DNA of 64,000 bases from Pseudomonadota bacterium. GTDB taxonomy: Bacteria > Pseudomonadota > Alphaproteobacteria > Rhizobiales > Xanthobacteraceae. The notes beneath the pieces were generated by a model that had not been told where the DNA came from, searched no databases, and was given only the letters and a program-made list of their open reading frames with translations. Every line of letters starts with the position of its first letter. The first letter of the stretch is position 1. Shown here one piece after another: positions 9,612-58,969 of this stretch. The stretch spans positions 15,002 to 79,001 of the forward strand of contig JBFMAV010000012.1 in the NCBI GenBank assembly GCA_040755535.1. The letters are read 5' to 3'. The position numbers were made by a program, and so were the translations under genes.

Positions 9612-9616
9612 CAGCC

Positions 9617-16886: not shown

Positions 16887-17581
16887 AACCTGCGCTCCTC
16901 AATCAGCGCCAGAAGCGCCTCCTCCTCGGGGATCGGCGCGACGCGCGAGGCCACGTCCGCCCGCGCCAGCACCGCCGCAACCGCCGGTGACAGGCAGAAG
17001 TGTCGCAGCCGGCCGAACGGTTCCATGAGCCCGGCCTTGGCGACGCAAGCGAGCAGCGCGCCGACCGTGCGCGGCGAGAGGTGCAGCGCACCGTCCAGCC
17101 CGCCCTGGACAAGCGCGCTCCGCGTCTGGTCGGACAGCGCCTCGGCGGGACGGGCGCGATAGACCTCCCAGGTCACGATTTCGAGACCGGCCGGCGCAAC
17201 CATCGCTGCAAGGTCGGCGGCACGCTCCTCGCCCGCCGGGTGGAGAATGCGGGCGGAGCGGGGAAGATCGGCGGACAGCCGCGCCGCGAGCGCCGCGGCA
17301 TCCCCATCACAGGCCGTGACGCCGGTGAATCCGGCCGCACGCGCCGCCTGCGCCGTGCGTGCGCCCACCGCGAAGACAGGGACGTTGAGGATTTCCCCCC
17401 TGAAACAGGCCACCCCATTGGCACTGGTGAAGGCGATGGCGTCGAACGGTCCTGACGGGCGCGGCTCCTCTTTCGGCTGGATGCGCAGCATGGGATCGCA
17501 GATCACGCTGTGACCCGCGTCGCGCAACCGCCGGGCCGTCCGGGCGGCGCCGGGCTCGGGCCGGGTGAGGAGCAGGCGCAC
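16883..17581 (-). CDS. hemD: uroporphyrinogen-III synthase
   Basis: The start is GTG 17581, 4 nt after the hemC stop (VRLLLTRPEPGAARTARRLRDAGH...), giving a HEM4-like protein of 232 aa. The first 101 codons of track ORF 16883..17884 overlap hemC and are rejected. Confidence 0.85.
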   Translation of the reverse strand: MRLLLTRPEPGAARTARRLRDAGHSVICDPMLRIQPKEEPRPSGPFDAIAFTSANGVACFRGEILNVPVFAVGARTAQAARAAGFTGVTACDGDAAALAARLSADLPRSARILHPAGEERAADLAAMVAPAGLEIVTWEVYRARPAEALSDQTRSALVQGGLDGALHLSPRTVGALLACVAKAGLMEPFGRLRHFCLSPAVAAVLARADVASRVAPIPEEEALLALIEERRF

Positions 17582-17585
17582 CGCG

Positions 17586-26960: not shown

Positions 26961-28289
26961 ATGATGAGCGAAAATACCGGTTCGGCCCCCGCGCGCCTCA
27001 GCGGCGCCGACATGCGCACTCTTGGCCTTTCGGCACTCGGCGGCGCGCTGGAATTCTATGATTTCATCATCTTTGTCTATTTCGTCGTGGTGCTGGGCAA
27101 TCTGTTCTTTCCCTCCGGCATTCCGGATTGGCTGGTCCAGCTCCAGGCCTTCGGCATTTTCGCGGCGGGCTATCTGGCGCGTCCGCTCGGGGGAATCGTG
27201 CTCGCCCATTTCGGCGACCGCCTCGGCCGCAAGCGCATGTTCACCTTATCCATCTTCCTAATGGCCGTTTCCACTTTCGGCATCGCCTGCCTGCCCACCT
27301 TCGCCACCATCGGCCATGCCGCGCCTTTGCTTCTGCTCGCCATGCGGGTGCTTCAGGGCGCGGCCATCGGTGGCGAAGTGCCGGGTGCCTGGGTCTTCGT
27401 CTCCGAACATGTGGCGCGCCGGCGCGTGGGGCTCGCCTGCGGCATCCTCACGGCGGGGCTGACCGCCGGCATTCTCCTGGGCGCGCTGGTGGCGACCGCC
27501 ATCAATCGCAGCTTCTCGGCACAGGAGATCCACGATTACGCCTGGCGCATTCCGTTCGCGCTCGGCGGCATCTTCGGCTTCTGCGCGGTCTATCTGCGCT
27601 CCTGGCTGGCCGAGACGCCGGTGTTCCAGCAGATGAAGGCCCGGCGGGAACTCTCCGCCGGCCTGCCGCTCGCCGTGGTGCTGCGCCACCATTTGCGGGC
27701 GGTGAGCGTGTCCATGCTGCTCACCTGGCTGTTGTCGGCGAGCATCGTGGTGGTGATCCTCATGACGCCCACCCTGCTGCAGACCCGCTACGCCATCCCG
27801 GCGCCCACCGCGCTGACGGCCAATGCCTTCGCCACCTTCTTCCTGACTCTGGGCTGCATCCTCACCGGGGCGCTGTGCGACCTGCTGGGCGCGCGCCGGG
27901 TCCTGGGCTTGGGGTCGCTGGCGCTCGCGGCGGCGGTGGCCGCGCTGTTCTATCTCCTGCCCACGCGCCCCGACCTGCTGCTGCCGCTTTATTCCCTGGC
28001 CGGGCTCACGGTGGGCGCCATCTCCGTGGTGCCCTTCGTGATGGTGCGGGCCTTTCCCCCCGCCGTGGCCTTTTCCGGGGTCTCCTTCTCCTACAATGTC
28101 GCCTATGCCGTGTTCGGCGGGCTCACGCCGCTGGCCGTGACCCTGGCGCTCCAGGTGGATCCCATGGCCCATGCCCATTATGTGCTGGGCCTGTGCGCCG
28201 TCGGGCTGGGGCTCGCGCTCGTGCCCGGCGCGGTCGCAAGTGCGCCGGGAGAAGCGCAACTTAAGGGGTCCCACGGCGCCTCGATGTGA
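26961..28289 (+). CDS. MFS transporter, metabolite:H+ symporter (MHS) type, paralog 1
   Basis: 442 aa with 12 TM helices. Contains the MHS loop motif GGIVLAHFGDRLGRKRMF and QGAAIGGEVPGA. Confidence 0.9.
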   Translation: MMSENTGSAPARLSGADMRTLGLSALGGALEFYDFIIFVYFVVVLGNLFFPSGIPDWLVQLQAFGIFAAGYLARPLGGIVLAHFGDRLGRKRMFTLSIFLMAVSTFGIACLPTFATIGHAAPLLLLAMRVLQGAAIGGEVPGAWVFVSEHVARRRVGLACGILTAGLTAGILLGALVATAINRSFSAQEIHDYAWRIPFALGGIFGFCAVYLRSWLAETPVFQQMKARRELSAGLPLAVVLRHHLRAVSVSMLLTWLLSASIVVVILMTPTLLQTRYAIPAPTALTANAFATFFLTLGCILTGALCDLLGARRVLGLGSLALAAAVAALFYLLPTRPDLLLPLYSLAGLTVGAISVVPFVMVRAFPPAVAFSGVSFSYNVAYAVFGGLTPLAVTLALQVDPMAHAHYVLGLCAVGLGLALVPGAVASAPGEAQLKGSHGASM

Positions 28290-28398
28290 TCGCGACGCCC
28301 CTTTTAAAGGAGAGGGGAGATGGACCGCGCTGATCGACGCCGTGTCTCGGCCCACGCGCGAGGACCGATCCGCCGGGCATTGAAGACGCGAATGGTGC

Positions 28399-29724
28399 AT
28401 GATACCGCCGGGTAACGGTTCTCATGCCATGGCGCCCATGCCCCCTGCCGCGATATCAACCCGCGACACCGGATCGCTAACCCCGGCACAGATGCGCACG
28501 CTCGCGCTCACCTCGCTCGGGGGCGCGCTCGAACTGTTCGACTTCGTCATCTTCGTCTATTTCGTGCCGTCGCTGGCGGCGGCTTTCTTCCCGCCGGGCA
28601 TTCCGCACTGGCTGGCGGAGCTTCAGACCTTTGTGGTGTTCGCGGTGGGCTATTTCGCCCGGCCGTTCGGCGGCGTGGTGGTGGCCCATTTCGGCGACCG
28701 CGTCGGCCGCAAGCGCACCTTTGGATTCACCGTCACGCTGATGGCCGGAGCCACGCTCGGCATGGCGGTATTGCCGCCCTATGCGGTCATCGGCATAGCC
28801 GCCCCCCTGCTGCTCTCGCTGCTGCGCATCATCCAGGGCATTGCGGTGGGGGGCGAAGTGGCGGGCGGCTATTTGTTCGGCGCCGAGCATGTGGCCGACA
28901 GCCGGCGCGGGCGCGCCTGCGGCTTTGTGGCGGGCGGCATGACGAGCGGGGTACTGCTTGGCGTGGGTGTGGCGACCCTCATTCACCACATGCTGGGCGC
29001 GGCCGACATCCTCGCCTGGGGATGGCGGCTGGCCTTCGTGCTGGGCGGAGGTCTCGGCCTGCTCACCCTGGTCCTGCGCCGCGACCTCCACGAAACACCC
29101 GTGTTCCGCGCCCTGGAAGAGTCGGGGCGGATTTCCGCCCGCCTACCGCTCGGCGAGGTCCTGCGCGCCCACCGCCGCGCGATCCTCCTGTCGGTCGGGG
29201 CCTTCTGGTCCTTCATCGCCCATTTCGTGGTGCTGTGCCTCATGGGGCCGACCCTGCTCCAATCCCTGTTCCAGCTGAGCGCGGTGGATGCGCTGGGGGC
29301 CGGATGCTTCGCGACCGCGACCTTCGTCCTGTGCGCGCCTCTCTCTGGACTTCTCTTCGACCGCATGGGACCGGGACCGGCGCTGGTCCTGCTCTGCCTG
29401 ATGGCGCTGATGGGCGATGCGCTGTTCCTGCTCGGATCTCGGGGCGCGCCGGACTTGGTGGTGCCGCTGTTCATGGTGGCGGGGGCGGGCGGCGGCCTGC
29501 TGGGCGGCGCCTCCGTGGTTATGATCCGCGCCTTTCCCCCGGCCATCGCCTATACTGGCGTTTCCCTCTCCCTCAACATCGTCTCCGGCATCATGGCGGG
29601 CCTCACGCCGGTTCTCATCGCGGGACTGTTGCCCTGGCTGCCGAGCGCGCCTCTGTGGTACCTCGCCGCCGCCTGTCTCAGCGGAGTGGCGGTGGGTGCC
29701 GTCCTGTGGCGGTCGCAAGGGTAA
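28399..29724 (+). CDS. MFS transporter (MHS type), paralog 2
   Basis: 441 aa. Contains GGVVVAHFGDRVGRKRTF and aligns with paralogs 1 and 3 along its full length. The start could instead be an internal Met (28429 or 28438). Confidence 0.88.
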   Translation: MIPPGNGSHAMAPMPPAAISTRDTGSLTPAQMRTLALTSLGGALELFDFVIFVYFVPSLAAAFFPPGIPHWLAELQTFVVFAVGYFARPFGGVVVAHFGDRVGRKRTFGFTVTLMAGATLGMAVLPPYAVIGIAAPLLLSLLRIIQGIAVGGEVAGGYLFGAEHVADSRRGRACGFVAGGMTSGVLLGVGVATLIHHMLGAADILAWGWRLAFVLGGGLGLLTLVLRRDLHETPVFRALEESGRISARLPLGEVLRAHRRAILLSVGAFWSFIAHFVVLCLMGPTLLQSLFQLSAVDALGAGCFATATFVLCAPLSGLLFDRMGPGPALVLLCLMALMGDALFLLGSRGAPDLVVPLFMVAGAGGGLLGGASVVMIRAFPPAIAYTGVSLSLNIVSGIMAGLTPVLIAGLLPWLPSAPLWYLAAACLSGVAVGAVLWRSQG

Positions 29725-29781
29725 GCTTTAGCTTGCGCGTCAGCAGAAGGAGCCGGTATCCCAATAAGAACCGCTCGGAGA

Positions 29782-31074
29782 ATGCCCGTGCCCGCTCCCC
29801 CTGCCTCGCCTTTGACACGCAAGCACGCGGCCATGCTCGGCCTCTCGGCCCTGGGCGGGGGCCTCGAACTCTATGATTTCATGGTGTTCGTGTTTTTCGT
29901 GCCGGTCATCTCGCAGGTTTTCTTCCCGCCCGACACGCCCCGCTGGCTGGCGGAGCTTCAGACCTTCACCGTGTTCGCGGTGGGCTTTCTGGCGCGGCCC
30001 CTGGGCGGCGTGCTGTTCGGTCATTTCGGCGACCGGATCGGCCGCAAGCGCACCTTCACCTTTTCCGTCCTGCTGATGGCGGGCGCGACGCTCGCCATCG
30101 CGCTTCTGCCGGGCTACCGGGAAATCGGCATCGCGGCCCCGGTCATCCTGGCCGCACTGCGCCTCGTCCAAGGCTTGGCAGTGGGCGGCGAGGTGGCGGG
30201 CGGCTATGTGTTTGCCAGCGAGCATGTGCCGCCGAACCGGCGGGGCCTCGCCTGCGGCGTCCTCGCCGCCGGCGCCACGACCGGCACATTGCTCGGCGTC
30301 AGCATGGCGACCTTCATGCACATGGTGGCGAGCCCTCAAGACATTCTCGCCTTCGCCTGGCGCATTCCCTTTCTCGTCGGCAGCGTGCTCGGCCTCGTGA
30401 CCTTGATCCTGCGGCGCTGGCTGGAGGAAACCCCGGTCTTCCAGGATCTCCAGCGGCGCCGTGCCCTGGCCGTGCAATTGCCGGTGAAGCTCGTGGTGCG
30501 GGAGCATTCCGCCGCGCTGGCGGTGTCGGCGCTCGGCATGTGGGTGCTTGTGGGACACTTCGCCGTGCTGGTGCTGATGGGGCCGACCCTGCTTCAGACG
30601 CAATATCACTTTCCCGCCGAGCAGGCGCTCGGCATCGGCAGCGCGGGCACCTTCTGCTCGTTCTTCGCCTGCCTGGTCTCGGGCCTCATGTTCGACCGGC
30701 TCGGGCCGGGCCGGGCGCTCTTGGTCGCGTCCCTTCTGGCGGGTCTGGCGAGCCAGTTCTTCCTCGCCGTGGCGGTGCATCACCCCGGCCTGCTGCTGCC
30801 GGCCTATTGCGCCGCGACCTTCGGAACCGGCCTTCTGACCGCCGTCCCGCTGCTCGCCATCCGCAGCTTTCCCCCGCAGGTCGCTTTTTCGGGCGTGTCG
30901 CTGGCCTATAATTTCGGCTTCGGGATCATGGCCGGGCTCACCCCCATCTTCATAGCGGCCGTGATCCCGGTGTTTCCCGCCATTCCCATGGCCTATCTGC
31001 TGGCCCTGGAGGCGACGGGCGTCGCGCTGGGGTTCGTCTTGATGCGCAGGCCGGCGGACGCCGCGCCGGTATAG
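29782..31074 (+). CDS. MFS transporter (MHS type), paralog 3
   Basis: 430 aa. Contains GGVLFGHFGDRIGRKRTF. It is closest to paralog 2 by eye. Confidence 0.9.
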   Translation: MPVPAPPASPLTRKHAAMLGLSALGGGLELYDFMVFVFFVPVISQVFFPPDTPRWLAELQTFTVFAVGFLARPLGGVLFGHFGDRIGRKRTFTFSVLLMAGATLAIALLPGYREIGIAAPVILAALRLVQGLAVGGEVAGGYVFASEHVPPNRRGLACGVLAAGATTGTLLGVSMATFMHMVASPQDILAFAWRIPFLVGSVLGLVTLILRRWLEETPVFQDLQRRRALAVQLPVKLVVREHSAALAVSALGMWVLVGHFAVLVLMGPTLLQTQYHFPAEQALGIGSAGTFCSFFACLVSGLMFDRLGPGRALLVASLLAGLASQFFLAVAVHHPGLLLPAYCAATFGTGLLTAVPLLAIRSFPPQVAFSGVSLAYNFGFGIMAGLTPIFIAAVIPVFPAIPMAYLLALEATGVALGFVLMRRPADAAPV

Positions 31075-37426: not shown

Positions 37427-38346
37427 CGACGCTTCTGGCGGTCGGGCTCGGCTATTGCGGGCGCATCTGGATTTCGGCGGAGCCCGCGCGGTTCGCCCGT
37501 GTCATCGGCACCAGCCGCAGCGCGGAGGGCGTGGCGAACCTCGCCCGGTCCGCGCCGGGGACCCAGGCCATCGCCTTCGACGGTTCAGTCTTGCCGCAGG
37601 CTCTCACCGACGCCATCGCACAGGCGGACATCCTGCTGCTCTCGGCCCCGCCCGGCGTGGCGGGCGATCCTCTTTTGGCGGTCGCGCGGGCGGCGCTGCG
37701 GGAGAGCCCGAGCCTGCGCCACATCCTTTATCTCACCACCCTCGGCGTCTATGGCGACCATGGCGGGGCGTGGGTGGATGAGGACAGCGTCCCCAATCCC
37801 GGCTCGGACCGGCTGAGGAGGCGGCTCGCGGCGGAGGCCGACTGGCAGGCGCTGGGCCGGGAAAAAGGGATACCCGTGGCCAGCCTGCGGCTCGCCGGCA
37901 TTTACGGGCCGGGACGCAACGCGCTGCTCCAGCTGCGCGCGGGCGAGGCCCGGCGCATCGACAAGCCGGGCCAGGTCTTCAACCGAATCCATGTGGACGA
38001 TATCGCGACCGCCTTGTCCGCCGTTGTGGATCAGGGCTTTGACGGGGTTCTGAACGTCACCGACGACCTGCCGAGCGCGCCCGGCGAGCCCGTGGCCTAT
38101 GCAGCCGGCCTGTTGGGCCTGGAGCCGCCGCCGCTCCTCCCCTTCGCGGAGGCGGCGCGCAGCATGAGCCCGATGGCCCTGACCTTCTGGGCGGGCAACA
38201 AGCGGGTGCGCAACGACCGGCTGAAGGGCCTCGGGGTTCGCCTGCGCTATCCCACCTATCGCGAGGGCCTTTCCGCACTGTTCGCCGAGGGCGAGGGCGC
38301 GGCGGCCGTCAGGCCGGCGGAAGCGGCGCGTCCAGCCACACCTTGA
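37423..38346 (+). CDS. SDR / NAD-dependent epimerase-dehydratase-like oxidoreductase
   Basis: ATG 37423 is preceded by AGGAGG and overlaps the queG stop (ATGA). It has a Rossmann-like N-terminus and LGVYGD ... AGIYGPGRN blocks. Confidence 0.8.
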
Positions 38347-40255
38347 AGGCGGAGAGTTCCACCGGGCCGGCGCGGGTGACCTCCGCCGCGAGCGCCAGCC
38401 GGGCCGCAGGGTCCGCCTCATGCTCCACCTGCCGCGCCAGAGCTGCGGCTCCCGCAAGGCCGAACTGGCCGAGCACGCCGGCGAAGGCATGGGCGGCGGC
38501 GGCGATGGGCTCGGGATCGCCCCGCGCCACCATGTCCTCCCATTCCAGCAGCCGGCGGCGCGTATTGTCGATGAACCGCAAGGCGAGGCGGCGAAAGCCC
38601 TCCTCCCCCACCGCCCGGCGCAAGGCACAGACACCGGCAAGATCGAGCCCGCCGCCGGTCTCTTCTCCCATTTCTTGCTTGGCGTGAACGGGCGCAGAAG
38701 CGGCAGGAGTGGTGCCCGGCTCCGGCTGCGCCATGGGCGGCAGTCCGCCCGCGCGCTGCGCCCAGGACTGGCCCTCCACCAGGATCAGCGTCCAATCATC
38801 CTCCGGGTCCGGGCCGAGCCGCTCCGCGATCCGGCGCGAGACCCCGTCCACCACCTTCTCCAGTGGCTGGCGACCCCGGTCCGTCACTTCGCGCACCAGC
38901 CAGTCGGGGCACGGCCCACCGCTCGCCAGGGCCACGGGGTCAAGTCCGTCCGTCGCCAGCAGCAGCCGATCGCCCCATTCCAGGCGCATCTGCACGCTCT
39001 CGTAGCGGGCATCCTTGATCATGCCGAGAATCGGCCCTTCCGCCGCTACCGACCGCACCCCGTCGCGCGACAGGATCATGGGAAAGGGATGGCCGGCGGA
39101 GGCGATCTCGATGGCGCCGTCCTCCCACAGATCGATCACCAGCGCGGTGGCCATGGCGGCATCGAAGCCTGGCTCGGAGAAGATCAGGTTGGACCAGCGG
39201 GTGAGATACTGGCTGGGCGAGCACTGGGTGCCAACATCCAGGGCGCGGATCATGGCCGCCTGGGCCACCGCGCCGGCCTTGCCGTTGATGCCATGGCCCA
39301 TCACGTCCGCCATGACAATCCGGTCGGCGCCCTGGCGCGGCAGATGGACCACGAGGTCGCCGCCGCCAATGTCAGCGGTTCCGGTCTGAAGCGCGAGATT
39401 GAAGGGGCCGAGGGTGTCGGGCAGCGCCGGGCGCACCAGATTGTCCAGCGCCGAGCCGAAATAGCGCAGCAGCCGCGCGCGCTGGCGGGTGGCACGGATC
39501 AACGCGAGCCCGACCGTTTCCAGCAGGGCCTGGGGCTGAACCGGCTTGGTGAGGAAGGTGTCGACCCCAAGTTCCAGCGCCCGTACCCGCACGCTCGGAT
39601 CCCCCGTGATCATGACGATGGGGATGGGGGGCCGCTCGGCATCATTCTCCAGCGCCTCCACCAGCCGCGTGCCGGGCTGCGCACCGAGATGGAAATCGGT
39701 GAGGATCAGATCGACCGTGGTTGCGGACGCAATCTCCAGCGCGCTCTTCAGGGTGGCGGCGGCGAGCAGGCGGTAATGGGGTTCGAGAATGCTGCAATAG
39801 GTTTCCAGCAGCATCTCCTCGTCTTCCACCACCAGAACCACGGGGCGGCGGCGGGCCAGGAGGCGCTGGGCCACGAGGCGATTGGGCGGACCCGGGTGAT
39901 AGGTGACCCGGTCGAGCGCCCGGCGCGCCAGGGCAAGGCCCCGGCCCGAAAGGCCATCCTCGGCACCGGCGAGCGTGGCGCGCCCCCATTGCGCATCGAA
40001 CCCGACAAAGGGGCCGCCATCATCCTCCAGCGTGACGGTGAGGACGAGGCCGTCCAACACAGCGTCCAGGGTGAGTTCACGGGCCGGCGGCGAGCCGTGG
40101 GCGACGAGATTGGCGGCGAGCTCAGCGACCGCCAGCACCGTCTCGTCCGCCACGTCGCCCGGCAGGCGCAATTCGCCGAATTGCCGGCGCAACGCCTTGC
40201 GCAGCCAGGACACGTCCTCCAGGGACGCGGGCCGTCGCGCTTCAAACAATTTCAC
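38309..40255 (-). CDS. four-domain signalling protein: RsbW-like Ser kinase (HATPase_c_2) + receiver + PP2C/SpoIIE phosphatase + HPt
   Basis: GTG 40255 lies 8 nt after GGAGGA. The N-terminal region carries AELAANLVAHG...DDGGPF...GRGLALARR. The REC domain has EDEE, LILTDFHL, VMITG and FLTKP. The PP2C domain has GGD, DVMGHG, SAGHP and ATDGL. The C-terminal HPt domain has AAAHAFAGVLGQFG. Confidence 0.85.
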   Translation of the reverse strand: MKLFEARRPASLEDVSWLRKALRRQFGELRLPGDVADETVLAVAELAANLVAHGSPPARELTLDAVLDGLVLTVTLEDDGGPFVGFDAQWGRATLAGAEDGLSGRGLALARRALDRVTYHPGPPNRLVAQRLLARRRPVVLVVEDEEMLLETYCSILEPHYRLLAAATLKSALEIASATTVDLILTDFHLGAQPGTRLVEALENDAERPPIPIVMITGDPSVRVRALELGVDTFLTKPVQPQALLETVGLALIRATRQRARLLRYFGSALDNLVRPALPDTLGPFNLALQTGTADIGGGDLVVHLPRQGADRIVMADVMGHGINGKAGAVAQAAMIRALDVGTQCSPSQYLTRWSNLIFSEPGFDAAMATALVIDLWEDGAIEIASAGHPFPMILSRDGVRSVAAEGPILGMIKDARYESVQMRLEWGDRLLLATDGLDPVALASGGPCPDWLVREVTDRGRQPLEKVVDGVSRRIAERLGPDPEDDWTLILVEGQSWAQRAGGLPPMAQPEPGTTPAASAPVHAKQEMGEETGGGLDLAGVCALRRAVGEEGFRRLALRFIDNTRRRLLEWEDMVARGDPEPIAAAAHAFAGVLGQFGLAGAAALARQVEHEADPAARLALAAEVTRAGPVELSAFKVWLDAPLPPA

Positions 40256-40323
40256 CGCATCCGTCCTCCCCGCGCCATGGTGGCAGGAAAGATGCCGCCC
40301 GCACAGCGCGATGGTCCGAAAGC

Positions 40324-40755
40324 TCAGTGCATAAGCGCGTCGAAGGGCATGAAGACCTCGCCCAGGAACGCCAGATCGTAGAAGCCGGAAATGAAGGTCA
40401 GCGCCACCGCCACCTGGGTCACGCCGGCGAACAGCAGAATGACCCCTTCCATCACCCGCTCCAGCCGGCGCGGTGCCTGCCAGAACACCCGCCGCATGGC
40501 GAGGCGGAAGGAAATGACGAAGAAATATTGCACCACCGCGATCAACCCCACCAGGAACAGCACCGCCATGATGTGGAGGATGGCCCGGCGTGGATCATGC
40601 CAGCGGGCCAGGATCTCCAGCGTCTTGGTGATTTCCGATCCGGCGACGATGTAAAGGCCTGTCAAGGCCAGGAATTGCTCCACCGTGCCGAACAGGCCAC
40701 GGATGCGCGCCTCCCGATCGGCGTCCTGGGATGCCTCAAGCGCAATGTCTGTCAT
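40324..40755 (-). CDS. small polytopic membrane protein, hypothetical
   Basis: 143 aa from ATG 40755 with about 4 TM helices. I recognise no family. Track ORF 40324..41274 was trimmed. Confidence 0.6.
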   Translation of the reverse strand: MTDIALEASQDADREARIRGLFGTVEQFLALTGLYIVAGSEITKTLEILARWHDPRRAILHIMAVLFLVGLIAVVQYFFVISFRLAMRRVFWQAPRRLERVMEGVILLFAGVTQVAVALTFISGFYDLAFLGEVFMPFDALMH

Positions 40756-40850
40756 GGCCCCGTCCACCGGCGCGAAGAACAAGCGGCAATGAGGGTGGAG
40801 GCTAAGCGGCCTCGGCGAACGATTTATTACCGGCCACGCGACACAGCGGC

Positions 40851-41348
40851 TCAGGCCAAAGCGTCCAGTTCCTCGTCGGACAAGGTGCCGGGCACGATGG
40901 TCACGGGAATGGGGAAGCGCGCGGACGCCGGGCCGGCCAGCAGGCCCACCAGCGGGCCGGGACCGTCCGACCCCGTGCCGGCCGCGAGCACCAGGACCGC
41001 GATGTCTCGATCCTCGGCGATGACCGAGCGCAGCGCCTCCGCCTTGTCCCCTTCGCGGATCACGCCCTCCGCCGCGACGCCGGAAATCTGGCGAGCCCGG
41101 GCGGCGAAGCGGTCCAGCTTCTGCTGCATCGCCTCGGTCTCCTCGGCCCGCATGAGATCGGCGACGCCCAGCCATTGCTGGCGCATTTCCTCCAGCGCGA
41201 GAATGCCCAGCATGGTCACGCCCGAGCCGGTGCGCGCGGCCCGACGCGCGGCGTAATAGAGGGCGCGGTCGCATTCCGGCGTATCGTCCACCACCACCAG
41301 GAATTTGCGGCGATGGCCCGGCTCGTGGATCTGGCGCTTGGGGCTCAT
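40851..41348 (-). CDS. universal stress protein (UspA) family
   Basis: 165 aa from ATG 41348: RKFLVVVDDTPECDRAL ... VLVLAAGTGSDGPGPLVG ... PVTIVPG. Track ORF 40851..41822 runs into hemJ and was trimmed. Confidence 0.82.
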   Translation of the reverse strand: MSPKRQIHEPGHRRKFLVVVDDTPECDRALYYAARRAARTGSGVTMLGILALEEMRQQWLGVADLMRAEETEAMQQKLDRFAARARQISGVAAEGVIREGDKAEALRSVIAEDRDIAVLVLAAGTGSDGPGPLVGLLAGPASARFPIPVTIVPGTLSDEELDALA

Positions 41349-41362
41349 GTCTCTTCCCGCCT

Positions 41363-41788
41363 TCAGAACGGCTTCACCACCACCAGGATGACGATGCCCA
41401 CCATGAGCAAAGCGGGCACCTCGTTCATGATCCGGAAATAGCGCTCGCTGTGCGGGCGCTCGTCGCGGGCGAATTGCTTCATCCAGCGCGATTGCATGCC
41501 ATGAACGCCCGAGAGCACCAGCACGAGAAGCAGCTTGCCGTGGAGCCAGCCCTGCGTGAACCAGCCCCCATCCCAGGCGAGCCACAGGCCCGCCAGCCAG
41601 GCGACGATCATGGCGGGGTTTGAGATGTAGCGGTGGAGCTTGCGCTCCATCACCTTGAAGGTCTCGGACTGGGGCGAGCCCACCGGCGCCCCGCAATGAT
41701 AGACGAACAGGCGCGGCAGATAGAGCATGGCGGCCATCCAGGAAATGATCGCCAGGATGTGCAACGCCTTGATCCAGAGATAGAGCAC
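41363..41788 (-). CDS. hemJ: protoporphyrinogen IX oxidase HemJ
   Basis: 141 aa with 4 TM helices. The N-terminus is MLYLWIKALHILAIISWMAAMLYLPRLFVYH and HGKLLLVLVLSGVHG is present, matching the HemJ/UPF0093 family. Confidence 0.9.
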   Translation of the reverse strand: MLYLWIKALHILAIISWMAAMLYLPRLFVYHCGAPVGSPQSETFKVMERKLHRYISNPAMIVAWLAGLWLAWDGGWFTQGWLHGKLLLVLVLSGVHGMQSRWMKQFARDERPHSERYFRIMNEVPALLMVGIVILVVVKPF

Positions 41789-41866
41789 GCCAGCCTCCGC
41801 TTGTCGGCCTCCCTTGTGCCATGGGCGAGGGAGGGGCGCCAGCGCGCCGGCGTCAGGGCCGGCGCT

Positions 41867-42928
41867 TCACAGCGGCGCGCGCACCCTGTCCACCAGCCTT
41901 TCCACATGGGCGATGGGCGTTTCCGGCTTGATGCCGTGGCCGAGATTGAAGATGTGCCGCACGCCGTCGAGGTCGCTGCGGATGCGCAGGATTTCCTCGT
42001 CCAGTTGCGGCCCGCCGGCGATCAGGCGCAGGGGGTCGAGATTGCCCTGAAGCGCGGTCTTTTCCCCAAGCTTGCGCAGGCTCTGGCGGTCGGCGGTCCA
42101 ATCGAGCCCGATCGCATTGACACCGAGCGCCGCGATGCGGGACAGCGCCTCGGCCGATGCGCCCTTGGGAAAGGCGATGATGCGGGCGTCCGGCTTCCTT
42201 GCCCAGATGCCGGCGGCGATGCGGGCGAGCGGATCGAAGCACCAGCGCTCGAAAGACAAAGGATCGAGCACGCCGGCCCAGGTGTCGAAAATCTGCACCG
42301 CGTCGGCCCCAGCCTCGATCTGGCCGAGCAGATGGGTGATTGACACCTCGACCAGATGGTCGATCAGCGCCTGGAACAGGCCCGGATCGCGCAAGGCCAG
42401 GAGCCGCGCCGGCCCCTGGTCGTCCGTGCCCCGCCCGGCGACCATGTAGGTCGCGACCGTCCAGGGCGCGCCGCAAAAGCCGATGAGCGCGGTGGCGCGC
42501 GGCAAGGCGGCCTTGGTGCGGGCGAGCGCCTCATAAACGGGGGCCGTGCGCGCCGCATCCAGCGTATCGGGCAAAGCGGCGACACCGGCGGCATCGGTGA
42601 CGGGATCGAGCCGTGGCCCCTCTCCCGTTTCGAAGCGCAGGCCGACGCCCAGCGCATGGGGCACCACCAGAATGTCGGAAAAGATGATGGCGGCATCGAA
42701 GGCGAAGCGCCGGATCGGCTGGAGCGTCACCTCGGCGGCGAGTTCCGGCGTATAGCACAGGGTCAGGAAATCGCCGGCCTTGGCCCGGACGTCGCGATAT
42801 TCGGGCAGATAGCGCCCGGCCTGCCGCATCATCCAGAGCGGGGGCGGAGCGGAGCGGACCTCTCCGTCCAGAACCGCGAGGAAGGGCGATTGATCGGCCG
42901 CAGGCGCAGTCTTTCCCAGTCCCGTCAT
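41867..42928 (-). CDS. hemE: uroporphyrinogen decarboxylase
   Basis: 353 aa. Contains [16 protein letters not shown] and the URO-D blocks. Confidence 0.96.
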
Positions 42929-42968
42929 AAAATAAGATTCTTTTTTAAAAGAGAGAGTCTGTTGGGTT

Positions 42969-42983
42969 TTAACGGTTGATTAA
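42969..42983. promoter_or_regulatory. CtrA box 1 (TTAA-N7-TTAA)
   Basis: TTAAcggttgaTTAA, a perfect match to both half-sites and the spacing. Confidence 0.65.
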
Positions 42984-43073
42984 CCACTTCCAGGCGCCCT
43001 CGACAATCGCTCCACAGACGGACCCTTCGGCGCACCCCGTTTGTCCCGCGCGCGGCGGGAGGGAATGAAGAGG

Positions 43074-43088
43074 TTAATCAAAGGTTAA
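43074..43088. promoter_or_regulatory. CtrA box 2 (TTAA-N7-TTAA)
   Basis: TTAAtcaaaggTTAA, a perfect match. Its right half overlaps the 14-bp palindrome AAGAGCCGGCTCTT. Confidence 0.65.
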
Positions 43089-43242
43089 GAGCCGGCTCTT
43101 GAAAGCGTCCACACCGGTTCACAGCCGGCCTGCCCAACGGCATCCCCAGAAGCCGAAATGTGGATGGATGTTCCCGATCTCCCCAGGCTCGGCTTGCGCG
43201 GGCCTTTCGGGCATGCCTTCCTGCACACGCCGTCCACAGGGG

Positions 43243-43251
43243 CGTGGATAA
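43243..43251 (-). promoter_or_regulatory. DnaA box (TTATCCACg)
   Basis: The plus strand reads cgtggataa, which is TTATCCACG on the minus strand. That is 8/9 to the consensus TTATCCACA. Confidence 0.55.
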
Positions 43252-43283
43252 GGTCGGGCGCTGACTTCAAGGAGCACCAACGC

Positions 43284-44138
43284 GTGAGTGATGAGAAGGT
43301 TGCGCAACCCGCCTATTTCCATCTCCACCTGGTGTCGGACGCCACCGGCGAGACGCTGATCAATGTGGGCCGCGCCGCCTGCGCCCAATATTCCAATGTG
43401 CTGCCCATCGAGCATGTCTATCCCCTGGTGCGCTCCATGAAGCAGCTGGAGCGGGTGCTGACCGAGGTGGAGACCAATCCCGGCATTGTCCTCTACACGC
43501 TGGTGGACCGGGAATTGCGTGAGCGGCTGAAGGAACGCTGCCGGGAATTGGGCGTGCCTTTCCTCTCCGTGCTCGCGCCCGTGGTGCAGCTGTTCCAGGC
43601 CTATCTCGGCGGCGAGCCCCAGCCGCGCGTGGGCGGGCAGCACGCGCTGGACGCCACCTATTTCAAGCGCATCGACGCGCTGAACTTCACCGTCATGCAC
43701 GATGACGGGCACATGACCGAGGATCTGGAGAATGCCGACGTGGTGCTGATCGGCATCTCGCGCACCTCCAAGACGCCCACCTCCATCTATCTCGCCAATC
43801 GTGGCATCAAGACCGCCAACATCCCGCTGGTGCCGGGCGTGCTGCTGCCGCCCCATATCGAGCGGCTGAAGAAGCCGCTGGTGGTGACGCTGGTGGCGAG
43901 CCCCGACCGCATCGTGGAAATCCGCCAGAACCGGCTGCTCGGCCTCAATGCCGCCCATCCCAGCGCCGCCTATGTGGACCGCGAGGCAGTGTCGGAGGAA
44001 CTGGCCTATTCCCGCAAGCTCAGCGCCCGCAATGCCTGGCCGCTGATCGATGTCACGCGCCGCTCCATCGAGGAGACGGCGGCCGCCATCATCGCCTTGT
44101 TCAATGAGCGCCAGCGCCGGAGCATCGTCGAGACATGA
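43284..44138 (+). CDS. pyruvate,phosphate dikinase / PEP synthase regulatory protein (DUF299, RP001-like)
   Basis: GTG 43284 lies 9 nt after AAGGAG. Contains [13 protein letters not shown] and the P-loop [11 protein letters not shown]. Track ORF 43158..44138 was trimmed. Confidence 0.88.
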
Positions 44139-44749
44139 GCCTGTGGCGCGCCTCTCTTCCTCTGGTCCTGGCCTCGCGCAGCGCGGCGCGGCGGGCGGTG
44201 CTGGAGTCCGCGGGCATTCCGCTGGAGGTAATGGTCCCCGCCGTGGACGAGCGCGCGGTCGAGGCGCAGGCCGCCGGCGCGGAAGCCGCCCCCGACGATG
44301 TGGCCCGCCTGCTGGCGCGCACCAAGGCGCTGGCCGGCAGCGGGCTCGCCGGGCCGGAGCATTATGTGGTCGGCGCCGACCAGACCCTGGCTCTGTGCGG
44401 AACGCTGTTCCACAAGGCCGGAGACAGGGCGGCGGCGAAGCTGCAATTGTCCCGTCTCCAGGGCCGCACCCACATGCTGCACTCCGCTGTCGCTCTGGTG
44501 CGGGAGGAAGAGGTGCTGTTCGAGACCGTGGTGAGCGCCAGCCTCACCATGCGCGCCTTGTCGGATATCGAGATCGAGGCCTATCTGGACGCCGCCGGCC
44601 CGGACATTCTCGGCTCGGTCGGCTGCTACCAGCTGGAGGCCCTCGGCGCGCATCTGTTCGAGCGGATCGAGGGCGACCATTTCACCATTCTCGGCCTGCC
44701 GCTTCTGCCGCTGCTCGGCGCGCTGCGGCAAGAAGGATTGCTCGCGTGA
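44135..44749 (+). CDS. maf: Maf-like nucleoside-triphosphate pyrophosphatase
   Basis: 204 aa containing [19 protein letters not shown] and GADQ. Its ATG overlaps the upstream stop. Confidence 0.88.
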
Positions 44750-45591
44750 CCGTCCGCCTGTGCATCGTCGGCTATCCCGCCACCTATTCCCGCTCGCCTC
44801 TGCTGCACGGTTATTGGATTGCCCGCCACGGGCTGGACGGCAGCTATGGCCGCGAGGATGTGCCGCCCGAGGCGGCCGCGGATTTCTTTTCCGGCATGAA
44901 GGCGCGCTATGCGGGTGGCAATGTCACCGCGCCCCACAAGCAGACCGCCTTCCGCGCCGTGGATGAGGCGGACGCCACCGCCCGGCGCCTGGAAGCCGTC
45001 AACACCATCTGGTTCGAGGACGGCCGCATGATGGGCGGCAATACGGATGCCATCGGCTATGTGGGCAGCCTTGATGCCGGGGCGCCGGGCTGGGATGCGA
45101 GCGGGCGTCCGGCTCTGGTGCTCGGTGCGGGCGGAGCCGCGCGCTCGATCCTGCATGGGCTGATCGAGCGGGGCGTGCAAACCATCTGGCTCGCCAACCG
45201 CACCTTGGCGAAGGCCGAGGAATTGCGCGATCTGTTCGGTCCCAAGGTGCGGCCCATCGGCCTTGGCGACCTCGCCGGGCCGCTCGCGGAGGCCGGGCTC
45301 ATTTCCAACACCACGACGCTGGGCATGAAGGGACAGCCGCCGCTGGATCTCGATCTCGCGCGGGTGCGGGACGACGCAGTGGTGAGCGATGCCGTTTATG
45401 TGCCGCTCGAAACCCCCTTCCTCAGGGCGGCCAAGGCGCGGGGCCTCAAGACCGTGGACGGGCTCGGCATGCTCATGCACCAGGCGGTGCCGGGCTTCGA
45501 ACGCTGGTTCGGCCTTCGCCCGACCGTGGATGAGGGGCTGCGCACGCTTCTGGTGGATGATCTGCGCGCCAAGGGCCAGTTGGAGGGCTAA
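44746..45591 (+). CDS. aroE: shikimate dehydrogenase
   Basis: GTG 44746 overlaps the maf stop (GTGA). Contains GYPATYSRSPLLHGYW, NVTAPHK and LGAGGAAR. Confidence 0.9.
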   Translation: MTVRLCIVGYPATYSRSPLLHGYWIARHGLDGSYGREDVPPEAAADFFSGMKARYAGGNVTAPHKQTAFRAVDEADATARRLEAVNTIWFEDGRMMGGNTDAIGYVGSLDAGAPGWDASGRPALVLGAGGAARSILHGLIERGVQTIWLANRTLAKAEELRDLFGPKVRPIGLGDLAGPLAEAGLISNTTTLGMKGQPPLDLDLARVRDDAVVSDAVYVPLETPFLRAAKARGLKTVDGLGMLMHQAVPGFERWFGLRPTVDEGLRTLLVDDLRAKGQLEG

Positions 45592-45594
45592 GGC

Positions 45595-46206
45595 ATGTGG
45601 GTGCTCGGCCTCACCGGCTCCATCGGCATGGGAAAGTCGGCCACCGCCGCGCTGTTCGGGGCACACGGCGTGCCGGTGCACGATGCCGACGCCAGCGTCC
45701 ATGATCTCTACAGAAGCGAAGCCGTCGCGCCGGTGGAGGCTGCCTTTCCGGGCGTGACGCGGGACGGCGCCATCGACCGGGTCGAGCTGTCCGCGCGTGT
45801 GCTCAACAATCCGGACGCGCTGAAGCGCCTGGAATCCATCGTCCATCCCCTCGTGCGGGCCCGCGAGGCGGCCTTCCTGTCACAGGCGCAAGCGGCGGGC
45901 GCGCGGCTCGTGGTGCTGGACATTCCCCTCCTGCTGGAGACCGGGTCCGGGGGGCGGGTGGATGCGGTGGTGGTGGTGAGCGCCCCGGCGGCGGTGCAGC
46001 GCGATCGGGTTCTTGCCCGTCCGGGCATGACGGCGGAGCGGTTCGCGCTCATTCTCGGCAAGCAGATGCCTGATTCGGACAAGCGCCGGCGGGCGCATTT
46101 CATTATCGATACCAGCCGGGGCTTCGACGCGGCCCGCCATCAGGTACAGGGCGTCGTGCGGGCCGTGAGCGGGCCGGGCCGGCGAAGGGGGACAAGCCAT
46201 GCGTGA
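45595..46206 (+). CDS. coaE: dephospho-CoA kinase
   Basis: The P-loop is [12 protein letters not shown]. 203 aa. Confidence 0.92.
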
Positions 46207-46924
46207 GATCGTGCTCGATACCGAGACCACGGGCCTTGATCCCATCAATGGCGACCGTCTGGTAGAAATCGGCTGCGTCGAGATGGTGAACCGCATCACC
46301 ACCGGCAACGTCTTCCACGTCTATATCAATCCCGAGCGGGACATGCCGCAGGAGGCGTTCAACGTCCACGGCCTGTCCGCCGAATTCCTCGCCGACAAGC
46401 CGAAATTCGCCGAGGTGGCGGACGAGTTCCTCGCCTTCATCGGCAATGACACGCTGGTCATCCACAATGCGGCGTTCGACATCGGCTTTCTCAATGCGGA
46501 GCTGGACCGCGCCGGCCGCCCGGTGATCGCCCGCGACCGGGTGGTGGACACGCTCGCGCTCGCCCGCCGCAAGCATCCCGGCGGGCCGAACAGCCTTGAC
46601 GTGCTGATGAACCGCTACGGCATCGACGCCTCGCGCCGCGTGAAGCATGGCGCGCTGCTGGATTCCGAGTTGCTGGCCGAGGTCTATAGCGAGCTGCTGG
46701 GCGGGCGGCAGGCCATGCTGGTGGGCCTGGTGGAGGAAGAAAGCGCCGCGCCGCGGCTGGTGGCCGCGACGGTGGCCGCCGCGCGCCAGCGCCCCGTGCC
46801 CCTCGCCCCGCGCCTCAGCGCGGAGGAAGCCTCCGCCCATGCCGCCTTCGTGGAGGGGCTCGGGGACAAGGCGATTTGGAACAGCTATCGCGCGGCGGAC
46901 CCCGAACCGGGCGCGGCGGCCTGA
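46199..46924 (+). CDS. dnaQ: DNA polymerase III epsilon subunit (3'-5' exonuclease)
   Basis: Exo I motif VLDTETTGL, plus HNAAFD and [14 protein letters not shown]. It overlaps the coaE end by 8 nt. Confidence 0.95.
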
Positions 46925-47010
46925 GGCCGGTATCCTGGACGAAGGCGCCGGGGCCATGCGTCGTATTGCAAGCGTGAGGCGTTTGCTATGAGGGAGACCT
47001 GGACCAGGGA

Positions 47011-47919
47011 GTGAGACACGGCATGTTGCGGCGCGCCTACCGGATCGTGATGGATGCGGTGTGGACTTTCCTCGCCGACGACGGCTGGGCGATCGCGAGC
47101 CATATCGCCCTGTCCATCCTCATGTCCCTGTTCCCCTTCCTGATCTTCGTGACGGCGCTTGCGGCCTTTCTTGATCTGCGCCCGCTCGCCAACGAGACCA
47201 TATTGCTCATTCTCGACACCTGGCCCGACGCGGTCTCCGAGCCCATCGCGCGGGAGATCTACAATGTGGTGAACCATGTCCGCACGGACCTGCTCACCTT
47301 CGGCGTCGCGCTCGCCATCTACTTTTCCTCCAACGGGGTGGAGAGCCTGCGCATCGGGCTCAACCGCGCCTATCAGGTGCGCGAGATGCGGGCCTGGTAT
47401 CGGCTCCGGTTCGAATCCATCATCTATGTGATGATCGGCGCCATGGGCATGCTCGCTCTGTCCTTCCTGGTGGTGCTCGGCCCGCTGTTCTGGAGCATCA
47501 TCATCAAGAATGTGCCGGCGGTGCGCCATCTGAGCCCGGCCGTGACCTTGGTGCGCTATGCCCTGACCTCTCTGGTGCTGATCCTGGGCCTCGTCGTCGC
47601 CCACAAATGGCTGCCGGCCGGGCGGCGCGGCTGGCGCGAGATCGCCCCGGGCATCCTCGTCACGCTTGTCCTGTGGCTGGTCGCAGCAGCGGCATTCGGC
47701 TTCTATCTGTCGGAATTCGCGGCCAATTACGTCAACACCTATGCGGGCCTCGCCTCGGTGATGATCGCGCTGGTGTTCCTTTATCTTACCGCCAGCATTT
47801 TCCTGTTCGGCGGGGAGTTCAACGCGGCCCTGGCCCGGGCGCGCACGCGGCGGGCGGAGGCGCGCACGTTGATCGCGCAGGGCGGGGGAGAGGTGGCGGG
47901 GGAACAAAGCGCGCCGTGA
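47011..47919 (+). CDS. YihY/BrkB family inner-membrane protein
   Basis: 302 aa, polytopic, with a YihY-type layout (FSSNGVESLRIGLNRAY ...). The start is GTG 47011, with ATG 47023 as an alternative. Confidence 0.85.
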   Translation: MRHGMLRRAYRIVMDAVWTFLADDGWAIASHIALSILMSLFPFLIFVTALAAFLDLRPLANETILLILDTWPDAVSEPIAREIYNVVNHVRTDLLTFGVALAIYFSSNGVESLRIGLNRAYQVREMRAWYRLRFESIIYVMIGAMGMLALSFLVVLGPLFWSIIIKNVPAVRHLSPAVTLVRYALTSLVLILGLVVAHKWLPAGRRGWREIAPGILVTLVLWLVAAAAFGFYLSEFAANYVNTYAGLASVMIALVFLYLTASIFLFGGEFNAALARARTRRAEARTLIAQGGGEVAGEQSAP

Positions 47920-48392
47920 GCGTCCCGCCCGTGCTTCCCATCGATGGCCGCCAATCTCCCGGCGCGCTCGCAATCCAGCGCGGCGTGATGCGTCATCTCG
48001 CGGTCTTGGGGCAGACCGGCATTCCGGAATTCTGTCTTGCCTCGGGCCGGCGGGCGGATATCGCCGCCTTGGACGCGAAGGGCGAAATCGCCATCATCGA
48101 GATCAAGTCGTCGGTGGCCGATTTCCGCGCCGACCTGAAATGGCCGGAATACCGCATCTATTGCGACCGGCTCTATTTCGCGGTGGCGCCGGATTTCCCG
48201 CTGGAGATCCTGCCCGACGACACGGGCATCCTGGTGGGCGATGCCTTCGGCGCGGAGACCCTTCGCCCCGCGCCGCTCCATCCTCTGCCCGCCGCGACGC
48301 GCAAGGCGCTGCTGATCCGCCTCGCCCGCGCCGCGAGCGGCCGGCTGGCCCGGCTCTATGACCCGGACCTCACCGGCCTTCCGGACATCTGA
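47916..48392 (+). CDS. mmcB: MmcB family DNA repair protein (PD-(D/E)XK-like)
   Basis: GTG 47916 overlaps the yihY stop (GTGA). Contains RADIAALDAKGEIAIIEIKSSVADFRADLKWPEY. Track ORF 47607..48392 was trimmed. Confidence 0.8.
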   Translation: MSVPPVLPIDGRQSPGALAIQRGVMRHLAVLGQTGIPEFCLASGRRADIAALDAKGEIAIIEIKSSVADFRADLKWPEYRIYCDRLYFAVAPDFPLEILPDDTGILVGDAFGAETLRPAPLHPLPAATRKALLIRLARAASGRLARLYDPDLTGLPDI

Positions 48393-58270: not shown

Positions 58271-58324
58271 ATCTCCGCCTGAGCCGGGCGGCGCGCTCCG
58301 CGCGCCGTCGCCTTCGGGCCTGCG

Positions 58325-58366
58325 GGCGCCGCCTTTCGGGGCGGCGCCTTTTCTTTTGTCTTTTTT
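58325..58366 (+). terminator. intrinsic terminator downstream of rho
   Basis: GGCGCCGCC (58325-58333) and GGCGGCGCC (58340-58348) form a perfect 9-bp stem with a 6-nt loop. The T-rich run TTTTCTTTTGTCTTTTTT follows directly. Confidence 0.85.
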
Positions 58367-58418
58367 AGCTCACAAAGTTAAGCAATGTGGCGCGGGATGT
58401 ATTTCGGGGTGTAAAGCC

Positions 58419-58778
58419 ATGTTGTTACGTATTCTTACTGTTTCTGTCATTGCCTTTACTGTGGCCGGCTGCGTTCCGGAGAAGATGACCAAGCCGGGCG
58501 CGTCGCAGGCGGACTATGACGCCGCGCGCACGCGCTGCGAGGCGCAGGCCTGGGCGCAGCTGCCGGCGGCGCCGAGCACCTATCAGGTCGCCCCGGCCTA
58601 CACCTCCAGCACCGGGCATAATTGCGTGAAGAACGATCACGGCAGCTACGACTGCAATCCGCGCCAGGAATGGCACCCGCCGGTCTATGGCACCAAGGAC
58701 GCCAACGCCCCGGGCCGCGAGACCATCGTGCGCGCCTGCCTGATGCAGGACGGCTGGACACCCGCCAGCGGCGGCTGA
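58419..58778 (+). CDS. small Cys-containing lipoprotein, hypothetical
   Basis: ATG 58419. The sequence MLLRILTVSVIAFTVAGCVPE carries lipobox VAGC. The mature part has four further Cys residues. 119 aa. Confidence 0.65.
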   Translation: MLLRILTVSVIAFTVAGCVPEKMTKPGASQADYDAARTRCEAQAWAQLPAAPSTYQVAPAYTSSTGHNCVKNDHGSYDCNPRQEWHPPVYGTKDANAPGRETIVRACLMQDGWTPASGG

Positions 58779-58969
58779 CGTCCTCGCGCCGCAATGGGAG
58801 CGGATGAAAAGACCGCGCGGCGGCGCCGAGAGTGGCGCGGAGGTCCTGTTTTATGAGATACGCGCACGGGACCGTCGGAGCGTGAACGCTTCGTCAAGGG
58901 GTCGGCGGGTATCGCAGAAGGGAACCGAAAGGGTGCACAGCGCCCTTTCGGGCGGCGGGGAACAGGTGG

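Follow-up and report, generated by a model that had tools for sequence, protein, structure and literature searches.

The DNA considered here is a stretch of 64,000 nucleotides (the window) from a bacterium of the Xanthobacteraceae (assembly GCA_040755535.1, contig JBFMAV010000012.1, positions 15,002 to 79,001), and the element in question is an intergenic gap of 355 bp at positions 42929-43283, a predicted candidate origin of chromosome replication. On the left, the gap is bordered by hemE (41867-42928, minus strand), encoding uroporphyrinogen decarboxylase (Pfam URO-D, 4e-111; TIGR01464 equivalog), and on the right by a DUF299 gene for a PpsR-like kinase-pyrophosphorylase (43284-44138, plus strand; Pfam Kinase-PPPase, PF03618, 2e-89; NF003742). 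Leftward, hemE is followed by hemJ, a universal-stress-protein gene, a short unknown gene and a gene for a HATPase-REC-PP2C-Hpt fusion, all on the minus strand; rightward, the gene for the DUF299/PpsR-like regulator is followed by maf, aroE (shikimate dehydrogenase), coaE, dnaQ and a BrkB-family gene, all on the plus strand. Transcription points away from the gap over 4.6 kb leftward and 4.6 kb rightward. The order DUF299-maf-aroE-coaE-dnaQ is reportedly also the one found downstream in Caulobacter. An initial annotation made from the letters of the window had proposed the gap as an origin of the Caulobacter type. Its quotation of 42929-43283 is exact to the letter, the gene order which it gave (hemE, gap, DUF299, maf, aroE, coaE, dnaQ) was confirmed by the family assignments, for the boundary genes TIGR01464 and PF03618/NF003742, and its placement of all genes from 38309 to 42928 on the minus strand and from 43284 to 48392 on the plus strand holds, the strands being mixed leftward beyond 38 kb. 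The closest relatives of the DUF299 protein belong to Aquabacter (99% and 93% identity) and Xanthobacter (approximately 80-85%), then to Ancylobacter (approximately 70%), so that the source organism, judged by this protein, is a relative of Aquabacter and Xanthobacter within the Xanthobacteraceae, order Hyphomicrobiales.

To compare the gap with its counterparts, 58 related loci long enough to show both hemE and DUF299 were used, with up to 6 kb on either side of the locus taken from large contigs. The gaps of 19 Aquabacter/Xanthobacter sequences were aligned for footprinting, and a separate family alignment of 16 sequences added Ancylobacter and Starkeya-like loci. The motif positions tested were those named in the initial annotation before any alignment existed. 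The divergent arrangement of hemE and DUF299 around the gap is kept in all 58 informative loci, and the length of the gap varies between 300 and 440 bp. In large contigs of relatives it is found at approximately 1.514-1.527 Mb of NZ_OZ257132.1 (Ancylobacter, 4.80 Mb), 1.011-1.024 Mb of NZ_JBLAOA010000001.1 (Xanthobacter sp. AM11, contig of 4.56 Mb) and 4.017-4.030 Mb of KB899087.1 (scaffold of 5.08 Mb).

The GC content of the gap is 58%, compared to approximately 68% for the window. Its hemE end is formed by an AT-rich stretch of 34 bp (42927-42960), a candidate DNA-unwinding element which is partly palindromic (TCTTTTTTAAAAGAGA) and abuts the hemE start codon. The region 42924-42984 contains the AT-richest segments of 20, 30, 40 and 60 bp in the whole window, as had been claimed for this stretch, while at a scale of 100 bp the gap region ranks second after 58348-58447. 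Two GANTC sites, candidates for methylation by CcrM, lie within the stretch, GATTC at 42936-42940 and GAGTC at 42955, the latter as part of the hexamer GAGTCT (42955-42960). This hexamer is identical in 19 of the 19 aligned Aquabacter/Xanthobacter sequences (identity 1.00) and is retained in most loci of the Ancylobacter group. The relatives carry two to three GANTC sites within the first approximately 40 bp of the gap, and the A/T-rich character of the stretch is maintained in all of them. Over the 64 kb, GANTC is depleted about threefold (79 sites versus 259 ± 16 expected), a figure which would fit a CcrM-type methyltransferase shaping the genome.

The full CtrA motif TTAA-N7-TTAA occurs exactly twice in the window, at 42969-42983 and 43074-43088, and both matches are located in the gap, which bears out the claim that these are the only perfect CtrA boxes in 64 kb. 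Dinucleotide-preserving shuffles gave an expectation of 0.01 matches, and none of 100 shuffles reached two. Box a (TTAACGGTTGATTAAC, TTAA-N7-TTAAC; 42969-42984, plus strand) lies 8 bp from the AT-rich stretch and has a column identity of 0.93. Box b (43073-43088; TTAACCTTTGATTAAC on the minus strand; identity 0.82) is inverted relative to box a, and the pair is embedded in a 27-nt inverted repeat, I1 (42964-42990 and 43067-43093), whose arms are 81% complementary. Box a was recovered with at most one mismatch in all nine Aquabacter/Xanthobacter sequences scanned with one mismatch allowed, and its right half-site TTGATTAAC is present in 31 of the 31 gaps of this clade. The start-to-start spacing of the boxes is 104-105 bp in nine scanned loci possessing both full boxes. 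Across the 58 related loci, 43 full CtrA boxes were counted inside the hemE-DUF299 gaps, which together make up 19 kb, versus none in 683 kb of flanking DNA. Loci of Ancylobacter, of the Starkeya-like group and of other Xanthobacteraceae lack full CtrA boxes; two Starkeya-like loci keep a single box, which is situated elsewhere.

Putative DnaA sites are distributed over the gap from 43008 onwards. Box 1 (CGCTCCACA, 43008-43016, plus strand) belongs to the conserved block CGACAAnCGnTCCACAG (43001-43017; identity 0.90-0.97); in Xanthobacter it reads CGATCCACA, matching the Caulobacter G-box TGATCCACA at eight of nine positions, and in Ancylobacter CCCCCA. Box 2 (GCGTCCACA, 43105-43113, plus strand), whose aligned position in Ancylobacter reads TTATCCACG, is followed by a TTCACAG element (43119-43125, plus strand), a degenerate DnaA-like core in which CACAG is nearly invariant and which is part of a direct repeat, D3. 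A TCCCCA hexamer at 43143-43148 (plus strand), moderately conserved, is identical to the W-box consensus of Caulobacter (PMC4285127). Box 3 (CCATCCACA, 43159-43167, minus strand; identity 0.90) reads TCATCCACA in several relatives, and its core TGTGGA is invariant in both the 19-sequence and the 16-sequence alignment. A second W-box-like TCCCCA (43180-43185, plus strand) lies within the block TCCCCAGG, which is nearly invariant in the Ancylobacter group. It is followed by CTTGCG and GCATGCCTTCCT (43193-43222, plus strand), blocks conserved family-wide that may constitute a promoter of the DUF299 gene. Box 4 (CCGTCCACA, 43230-43238, plus strand; identity 0.81), which forms a 20-nt direct repeat, D1, with box 1, is convergent with box 5 (TTATCCACG, 43243-43251, minus strand). 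The latter matches TTATCCACA at eight of nine positions; its counterpart is TTATCCACC in the majority of Xanthobacter loci and TCATCCACA in Ancylobacter. Thus, the single 8/9 DnaA box and the four TCCACA-core sites listed by the initial annotation were all found in their places, and the gap holds, together with two TCCCCA hexamers, a set of putative DnaA sites whose positions are conserved and phased. The four TCCACA cores (43011, 43108 and 43233 on the plus strand, 43159 on the minus strand) contrast with 0.17 expected in 355 bp at the window-wide rate (Poisson 3e-5, a post hoc figure). A scan of 42500-43700 for E. coli sigma-70 promoters and intrinsic terminators found none, so that the promoter assignments made here stay putative. 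Rfam and tRNA scans gave no match in the gap, hence no structured RNA explains its conservation.

The conservation of the gap is concentrated in these motifs. In the 19-sequence alignment, the mean pairwise identity of motif columns is 0.82 versus 0.49 for the other gap columns (Mann-Whitney p = 1e-17), and the footprint consists of near-invariant islands parted by unalignable sequence. From left to right, the islands are GAGTCT (42955-42960), CtrA box a, CGACAAnCGnTCCACAG, CtrA box b and GTCCACA followed by CACAG, and then TGTGGATG (the minus-strand box CCATCCACA), TCCCCAGG, CTTGCG with GCATGCCTT and the convergent pair TCCACAGG / GGTGGATAA. The distances between neighbouring blocks are fixed within 1 bp in 31 loci, and the exceptions are jumps of 11 bp, i.e. 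one helical turn: from 62 to 51 bp between box 1 and box b in seven loci (L006, L013-L017 and L019), from 86 to 75 bp between box b and box 3 in L004, and from 75 to 86 bp between box 3 and box 4 in L023. The intervening segments differ freely in sequence but are constrained in length. Since the spacing is either held within 1 bp or shifted by 11 bp, the geometry of the blocks would fit a nucleoprotein complex with sites facing each other better than a loose set of promoters. In the wider family (Ancylobacter, Starkeya-like and others), the AT-rich part with its GANTC sites and the DnaA-like blocks persist in variant form, as described above for boxes 1 and 2; these loci also retain TGTGGA, TCCCCAGG and the convergent pair at the end. 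Because this wider family keeps the DnaA-like blocks without full CtrA boxes, the DnaA-site scaffold is old and the CtrA pair specific to Aquabacter and Xanthobacter.

With regard to strand composition, the raw cumulative G-C curve of the window has its minimum at 41598, 1.3 kb from the gap. To remove coding-strand effects, the GC skew at third codon positions (GC3 skew) was determined for 47 genes classed as leading or lagging, an approach of limited power within 64 kb. With the switch placed at the hemE-DUF299 gap, leading genes averaged -0.064 and lagging genes -0.104 (permutation p = 0.0034). When all inter-gene positions were allowed, the best switch lay one gene to the left of the gap (t = 2.91 versus 2.71 at the gap; family-wise p = 0.04). 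Models without a switch failed (p = 0.77 and 0.23), and no GC3-skew signal of the terminus type was found within the window. The position of this polarity switch supports, within the power of 47 genes, that replication forks diverge at or very near the gap. Coding DNA on the right arm amounts to at least 10.8 kb on the plus strand versus 3.3 kb on the minus strand.

Read directly from the DNA are the motifs, which are placed non-randomly, conserved and phased, as well as the synteny and a local switch in strand composition. Given this synteny, the footprint with its geometry, the specificity of the CtrA boxes and the GC3 skew, the proposal of the initial annotation stands: with a probability of roughly 80%, the gap 42929-43283 is the chromosomal oriC, homologous in position and general design to the Caulobacter origin, Cori. 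Binding of DnaA and CtrA, unwinding and repression by CtrA are what homology with Cori would predict for the gap. DnaA-ATP would fill approximately five to seven weak or moderate boxes over 43008-43251, namely the 9-mers with a TCCACA core on both strands and the W-like TCCCCA sites, and their fixed helical phasing would allow the bound DnaA to oligomerise. The resulting complex would melt the 34-bp AT-rich stretch (42927-42960) beside hemE, helicase would be loaded and two forks would depart in opposite directions. Phosphorylated CtrA, on the other hand, may bind to the two inverted TTAA-N7-TTAAC boxes, which lie 105 bp or approximately ten helical turns apart, one of them 8 bp from the AT-rich stretch and the other between DnaA boxes 1 and 2. 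Bound in this way, it would block unwinding or the spreading of DnaA in non-replicating cells. Firing of the origin would at once convert both GANTC sites of the AT-rich stretch from full methylation to hemimethylation.

The location of the gap is that of a known origin, as the initial annotation had pointed out. In Caulobacter, mapping placed Cori in the interval separating hemE from duf299 (CCNA_00001) (PMC6393856). It comprises an AT-rich region, two moderate G-boxes (TGATCCACA) and five weak W-boxes (TCCCCA), together with five sites for CtrA, one for IHF, five GANTC motifs and promoters within the origin (PMC6393856; PMC4285127). What both regions have in common are the boundaries hemE and DUF299, the AT-rich stretch on the hemE side, weak or moderate DnaA sites including TCCCCA hexamers, GANTC sites, TTAA-N7-TTAA boxes beside the unwinding region and among the DnaA sites, and promoters inside the origin, the DnaA sites and the promoters being putative in the present case. 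By contrast, the gap studied here possesses an inverted CtrA pair 105 bp apart instead of five sites, lacks an IHF consensus and shows no detectable sequence similarity to Cori beyond short motifs, and it is known from its sequence alone. Moreover, Cori overlaps the duf299 open reading frame, whereas all conserved blocks of the present region are located upstream of the GTG start codon. The gap is of the Cori type only loosely: it agrees in location, AT-rich stretch, presence of CtrA boxes and GANTC, differs in the number of CtrA sites and in IHF, and has putative DnaA sites that are weak variants.

The chromosomal oriC of Sinorhizobium meliloti, a member of the same order (Hyphomicrobiales/Rhizobiales), is said to be linked to hemE as well. 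This origin (Sibley et al. 2006, cited in PMC2877005) depends on DnaA boxes, a dependence which is predicted for the present region. The S. meliloti origin was reported to be devoid of CtrA-binding motifs and was not bound by CtrA in chromatin immunoprecipitation sequencing (ChIP-seq) (PMC4433202), while the gap studied here and its homologues in Aquabacter and Xanthobacter carry two conserved full boxes. In Brucella abortus, too, CtrA does not bind to the organism's own origin (PMC2877005). For Hyphomonas neptunium, a CtrA ChIP-seq peak adjoining the origin was described (PMC7200025). That origin is thus another alphaproteobacterial example outside Caulobacter with CtrA sites nearby, which are predicted in the present case; it has one experimentally shown site next to the origin, whereas the sites inside the presumed origin studied here are two and are predicted from sequence. 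In silico, origins have been placed between hemE and COG1806 in Rickettsia and between hemE and COG1253 in Wolbachia, Ehrlichia and Anaplasma (Ioannidis et al. 2007, PMC1914354), and the published criteria for alphaproteobacterial origins are the hemE/COG1806 neighbourhood, DnaA, CtrA and IHF motifs and a raised AT content (PMC1914354). The prediction for the present gap follows the same logic and, like those origins, the gap adjoins hemE, is AT-richer than the genome and contains DnaA and CtrA motifs more conserved than their surroundings. Those origins, though, reside in AT-rich genomes of obligate intracellular bacteria and have zero to seven CtrA sites and a predicted IHF site, while the genome studied here has 68% GC and no IHF consensus in its gap; at this GC content the motifs are far less likely to occur by chance. 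In Ori-Finder, hemE is an indicator gene of origins (PMC2275245). The region is probably a hemE-linked origin of a known alphaproteobacterial kind, one that standard tools would be likely to predict. A literature search did not find any paper describing the origin of Xanthobacter, Aquabacter or Azorhizobium, databases such as DoriC not being covered.

Several observations speak against an origin at this place. Co-orientation on the left arm is limited to 38.3-42.9 kb, and the coding DNA of the whole left arm comprises 19.3 kb on the plus strand versus 16.7 kb on the minus strand. The raw skew within the 64 kb is weak, with slopes of -0.012 on the left and +0.001 on the right. Neither dnaA nor parAB nor parS was found within the window. 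The FtsK-orienting motif GGGNAGGG occurs only eight times and is not polarised in the way that an origin would require (right: none on the plus strand, three on the minus strand), a result that is uninformative or mildly contrary. When one mismatch is tolerated, the 64 kb contain 5 DnaA boxes versus 2.3 expected, which is no significant enrichment. Clustering of E. coli-type boxes (TTATCCACA, up to two mismatches) was considered as evidence and dropped, the gap containing three and five other 355-bp segments doing equally well. The CtrA sites number two compared to five in Cori, and the IHF consensus sequences WATCAANNNNTTR and WATCAN5WTR are unmatched on both strands of the gap, although IHF sites are degenerate; both CtrA boxes contain an AATCAA core but miss the TTR part of the IHF consensus by one base. 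Finally, the AT-rich stretch sits in the zone of the hemE leader and promoter, and its composition taken alone would be explicable by transcription.

The last point leads to the alternative that survives best, although it is unlikely. According to this explanation, the gap contains only the divergent, densely regulated promoters of hemE and of the operon with the DUF299/ppsR-like gene, on which CtrA, DnaA and CcrM/GcrA act as transcription factors, and the origin lies elsewhere, e.g. near dnaA or parAB. DnaA and CtrA are indeed both known as transcription factors (PMC4433202), and in addition to the AT-rich stretch abutting a hemE start codon without a visible Shine-Dalgarno sequence, the conserved CTTGCG/GCATGCCTT blocks resemble a promoter with the DnaA-like boxes 4 and 5 just downstream. 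The missing enrichment of canonical DnaA boxes and the absence of dnaA and parAB from the window are in line with it. However, five to seven phased DnaA-like sites over 250 bp exceed the usual load of a regulated promoter, the rule of 11-bp indels indicates a higher-order complex, and the GC3 skew switches within one gene of the gap. In the homologous gap of Caulobacter, which is an experimentally mapped origin, promoters and origin functions coexist (PMC6393856).

It is less probable still that the gap is the relic of an origin, the hemE-linked ancestor having been replaced elsewhere on the chromosome while its blocks survived for the control of transcription. The use of CtrA at origins is very flexible in evolution and was probably acquired independently in some marine Caulobacter origins (PMC4468827), and the weak raw skew of the window would also be in agreement with a lost function. 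Yet a relic should decay, and two genera share these blocks at a spacing constant within 1 bp, the DnaA-like blocks being retained throughout the family; the local GC3-skew switch, moreover, indicates that forks diverge here at present. A chance cluster of motifs is effectively refuted: intergenic DNA of a genome with 68% GC is always AT-richer, which raises the odds of TTAA motifs, and the TCCACA statistic is post hoc, but two full CtrA boxes were found versus 0.01 expected, 43 lie inside and none outside the gaps of the relatives, and the motif columns are far more conserved than neighbouring columns.

If the gap is oriC, its position beside hemE is what would be expected, and its less expected feature, a mild novelty, is the conserved, helically phased and inverted pair of CtrA boxes. 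Xanthobacter was reported to retain the CckA-ChpT-CtrA relay (PMC2877005). On balance, we lean slightly towards the view that the origin of Aquabacter and Xanthobacter is under direct control of CtrA, exerted through the conserved inverted TTAA-N7-TTAAC pair approximately ten helical turns apart, with one box flanking the unwinding element, and that this control was either gained or kept by this particular lineage of the Hyphomicrobiales. A pair of closely related genera, one possessing CtrA boxes at its origin and the other not, would then make it possible to ask what direct control of initiation by CtrA is good for. The same scaffold with phased CtrA boxes in Aquabacter and Xanthobacter and without them in Ancylobacter amounts to a natural experiment on the wiring of cell-cycle regulators into origins, and the spacing rule of 1 bp or 11 bp limits, in a way open to testing, how the initiation complex can be arranged. 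Aquabacter and Xanthobacter are genera of growing biotechnological interest, for which an origin fragment would be a base for replicating vectors. The location of the origin also fixes the map of the replichores and aids the interpretation of skew, gene dosage and growth rates deduced from metagenomic read depth.

The position aligned to 42974-42984 is occupied in Aquabacter and Xanthobacter by the right half of box a (GATTAAC). In the Ancylobacter group (L031-L051, L055 and L058-L060), a conserved (G/C)ATTAG(A/C)C takes its place, which is not a CtrA half-site. Another constraint or another protein may act at this block.

With regard to the boundary genes, the start of the DUF299 gene was set to GTG 43284, which is preceded by AAGGAG at 43269-43274, 9 nt upstream. 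An upstream in-frame ATG (43158) was rejected since the alignment upstream of the GTG codon displays low conservation and indels that are not multiples of three. The hemE gene starts with ATG 42928, in front of which no Shine-Dalgarno-like sequence was detected. As an AT-rich palindrome with GANTC on either side abuts this codon, the hemE leader may be very short or absent. Further haem-pathway genes accompany hemE in the window, the whole set being located at 13930-18530 and 41363-42928 and encoding a HemY-N protein with an adjacent unknown 456-residue protein, HemC, HemJ and HemE.

An open reading frame of 316 codons (40324-41274), with an antisense frame of 309 codons, was not accepted as a gene. 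Frame-specific GC content revealed it as an artefact spanning two shorter minus-strand genes, one for a universal stress protein (approximately 40851-41300) and one, in a different frame, for an unknown, probably membrane, protein (approximately 40324-40764). Still further left, 2.7 kb from the presumed origin, a protein of 648 residues is encoded (38309-40255, minus strand) in which an anti-sigma-kinase-like HATPase_c_2 domain is combined with a receiver domain, a PP2C/SpoIIE phosphatase and an Hpt domain. By its domains, it would be an unusual hybrid of partner switching and phosphorelay.

On the right side, rho is located 13.6 kb from the gap. In the region 58300-58780, the AT-richest 100 bp of the window, 58348-58447, correspond to the intrinsic terminator of rho, a GC hairpin with a T-run, which is followed by a small gene whose product starts with a signal peptide of the lipoprotein type (…VAGC). 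This segment was discarded as a competing candidate for the unwinding element, being a terminator in front of a small lipoprotein gene and containing neither DnaA nor CtrA motifs.

The locus is complete in two small sequencing runs from 2021 (X1 and X2) and partial in a third (X3; 59% of the sampled words). Over 64 kb, the copy-number gradient to be expected in such reads amounts to approximately 1%. Further runs under the same species labels (the X21-X24 group) are very large Hi-C and single-cell RNA libraries, and for this reason the bacterium may have been sequenced along with a larger organism, as its associate or as a contaminant.

Elsewhere, the window carries secB, tsaD, mutS, argH and lysA. 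Three tandem MFS transporter genes of 430-442 codons each (26961-31074, plus strand) coincide with its most extreme AT skew (-0.26 to -0.38). A guanidine-I riboswitch (5210-5325; 74.8 bits) precedes an operon for an NMT1-like ABC transporter (genes at 5416-8127). Where the ATPase gene ends, there is a guanidine-II (mini-ykkC) riboswitch (8061-8110), and downstream of it a gene for a biotin enzyme of the urea/guanidine-carboxylase type with 1213 residues (9515-13156). This looks like a locus of the standard kind for uptake and degradation of guanidine, with two riboswitch classes in series.

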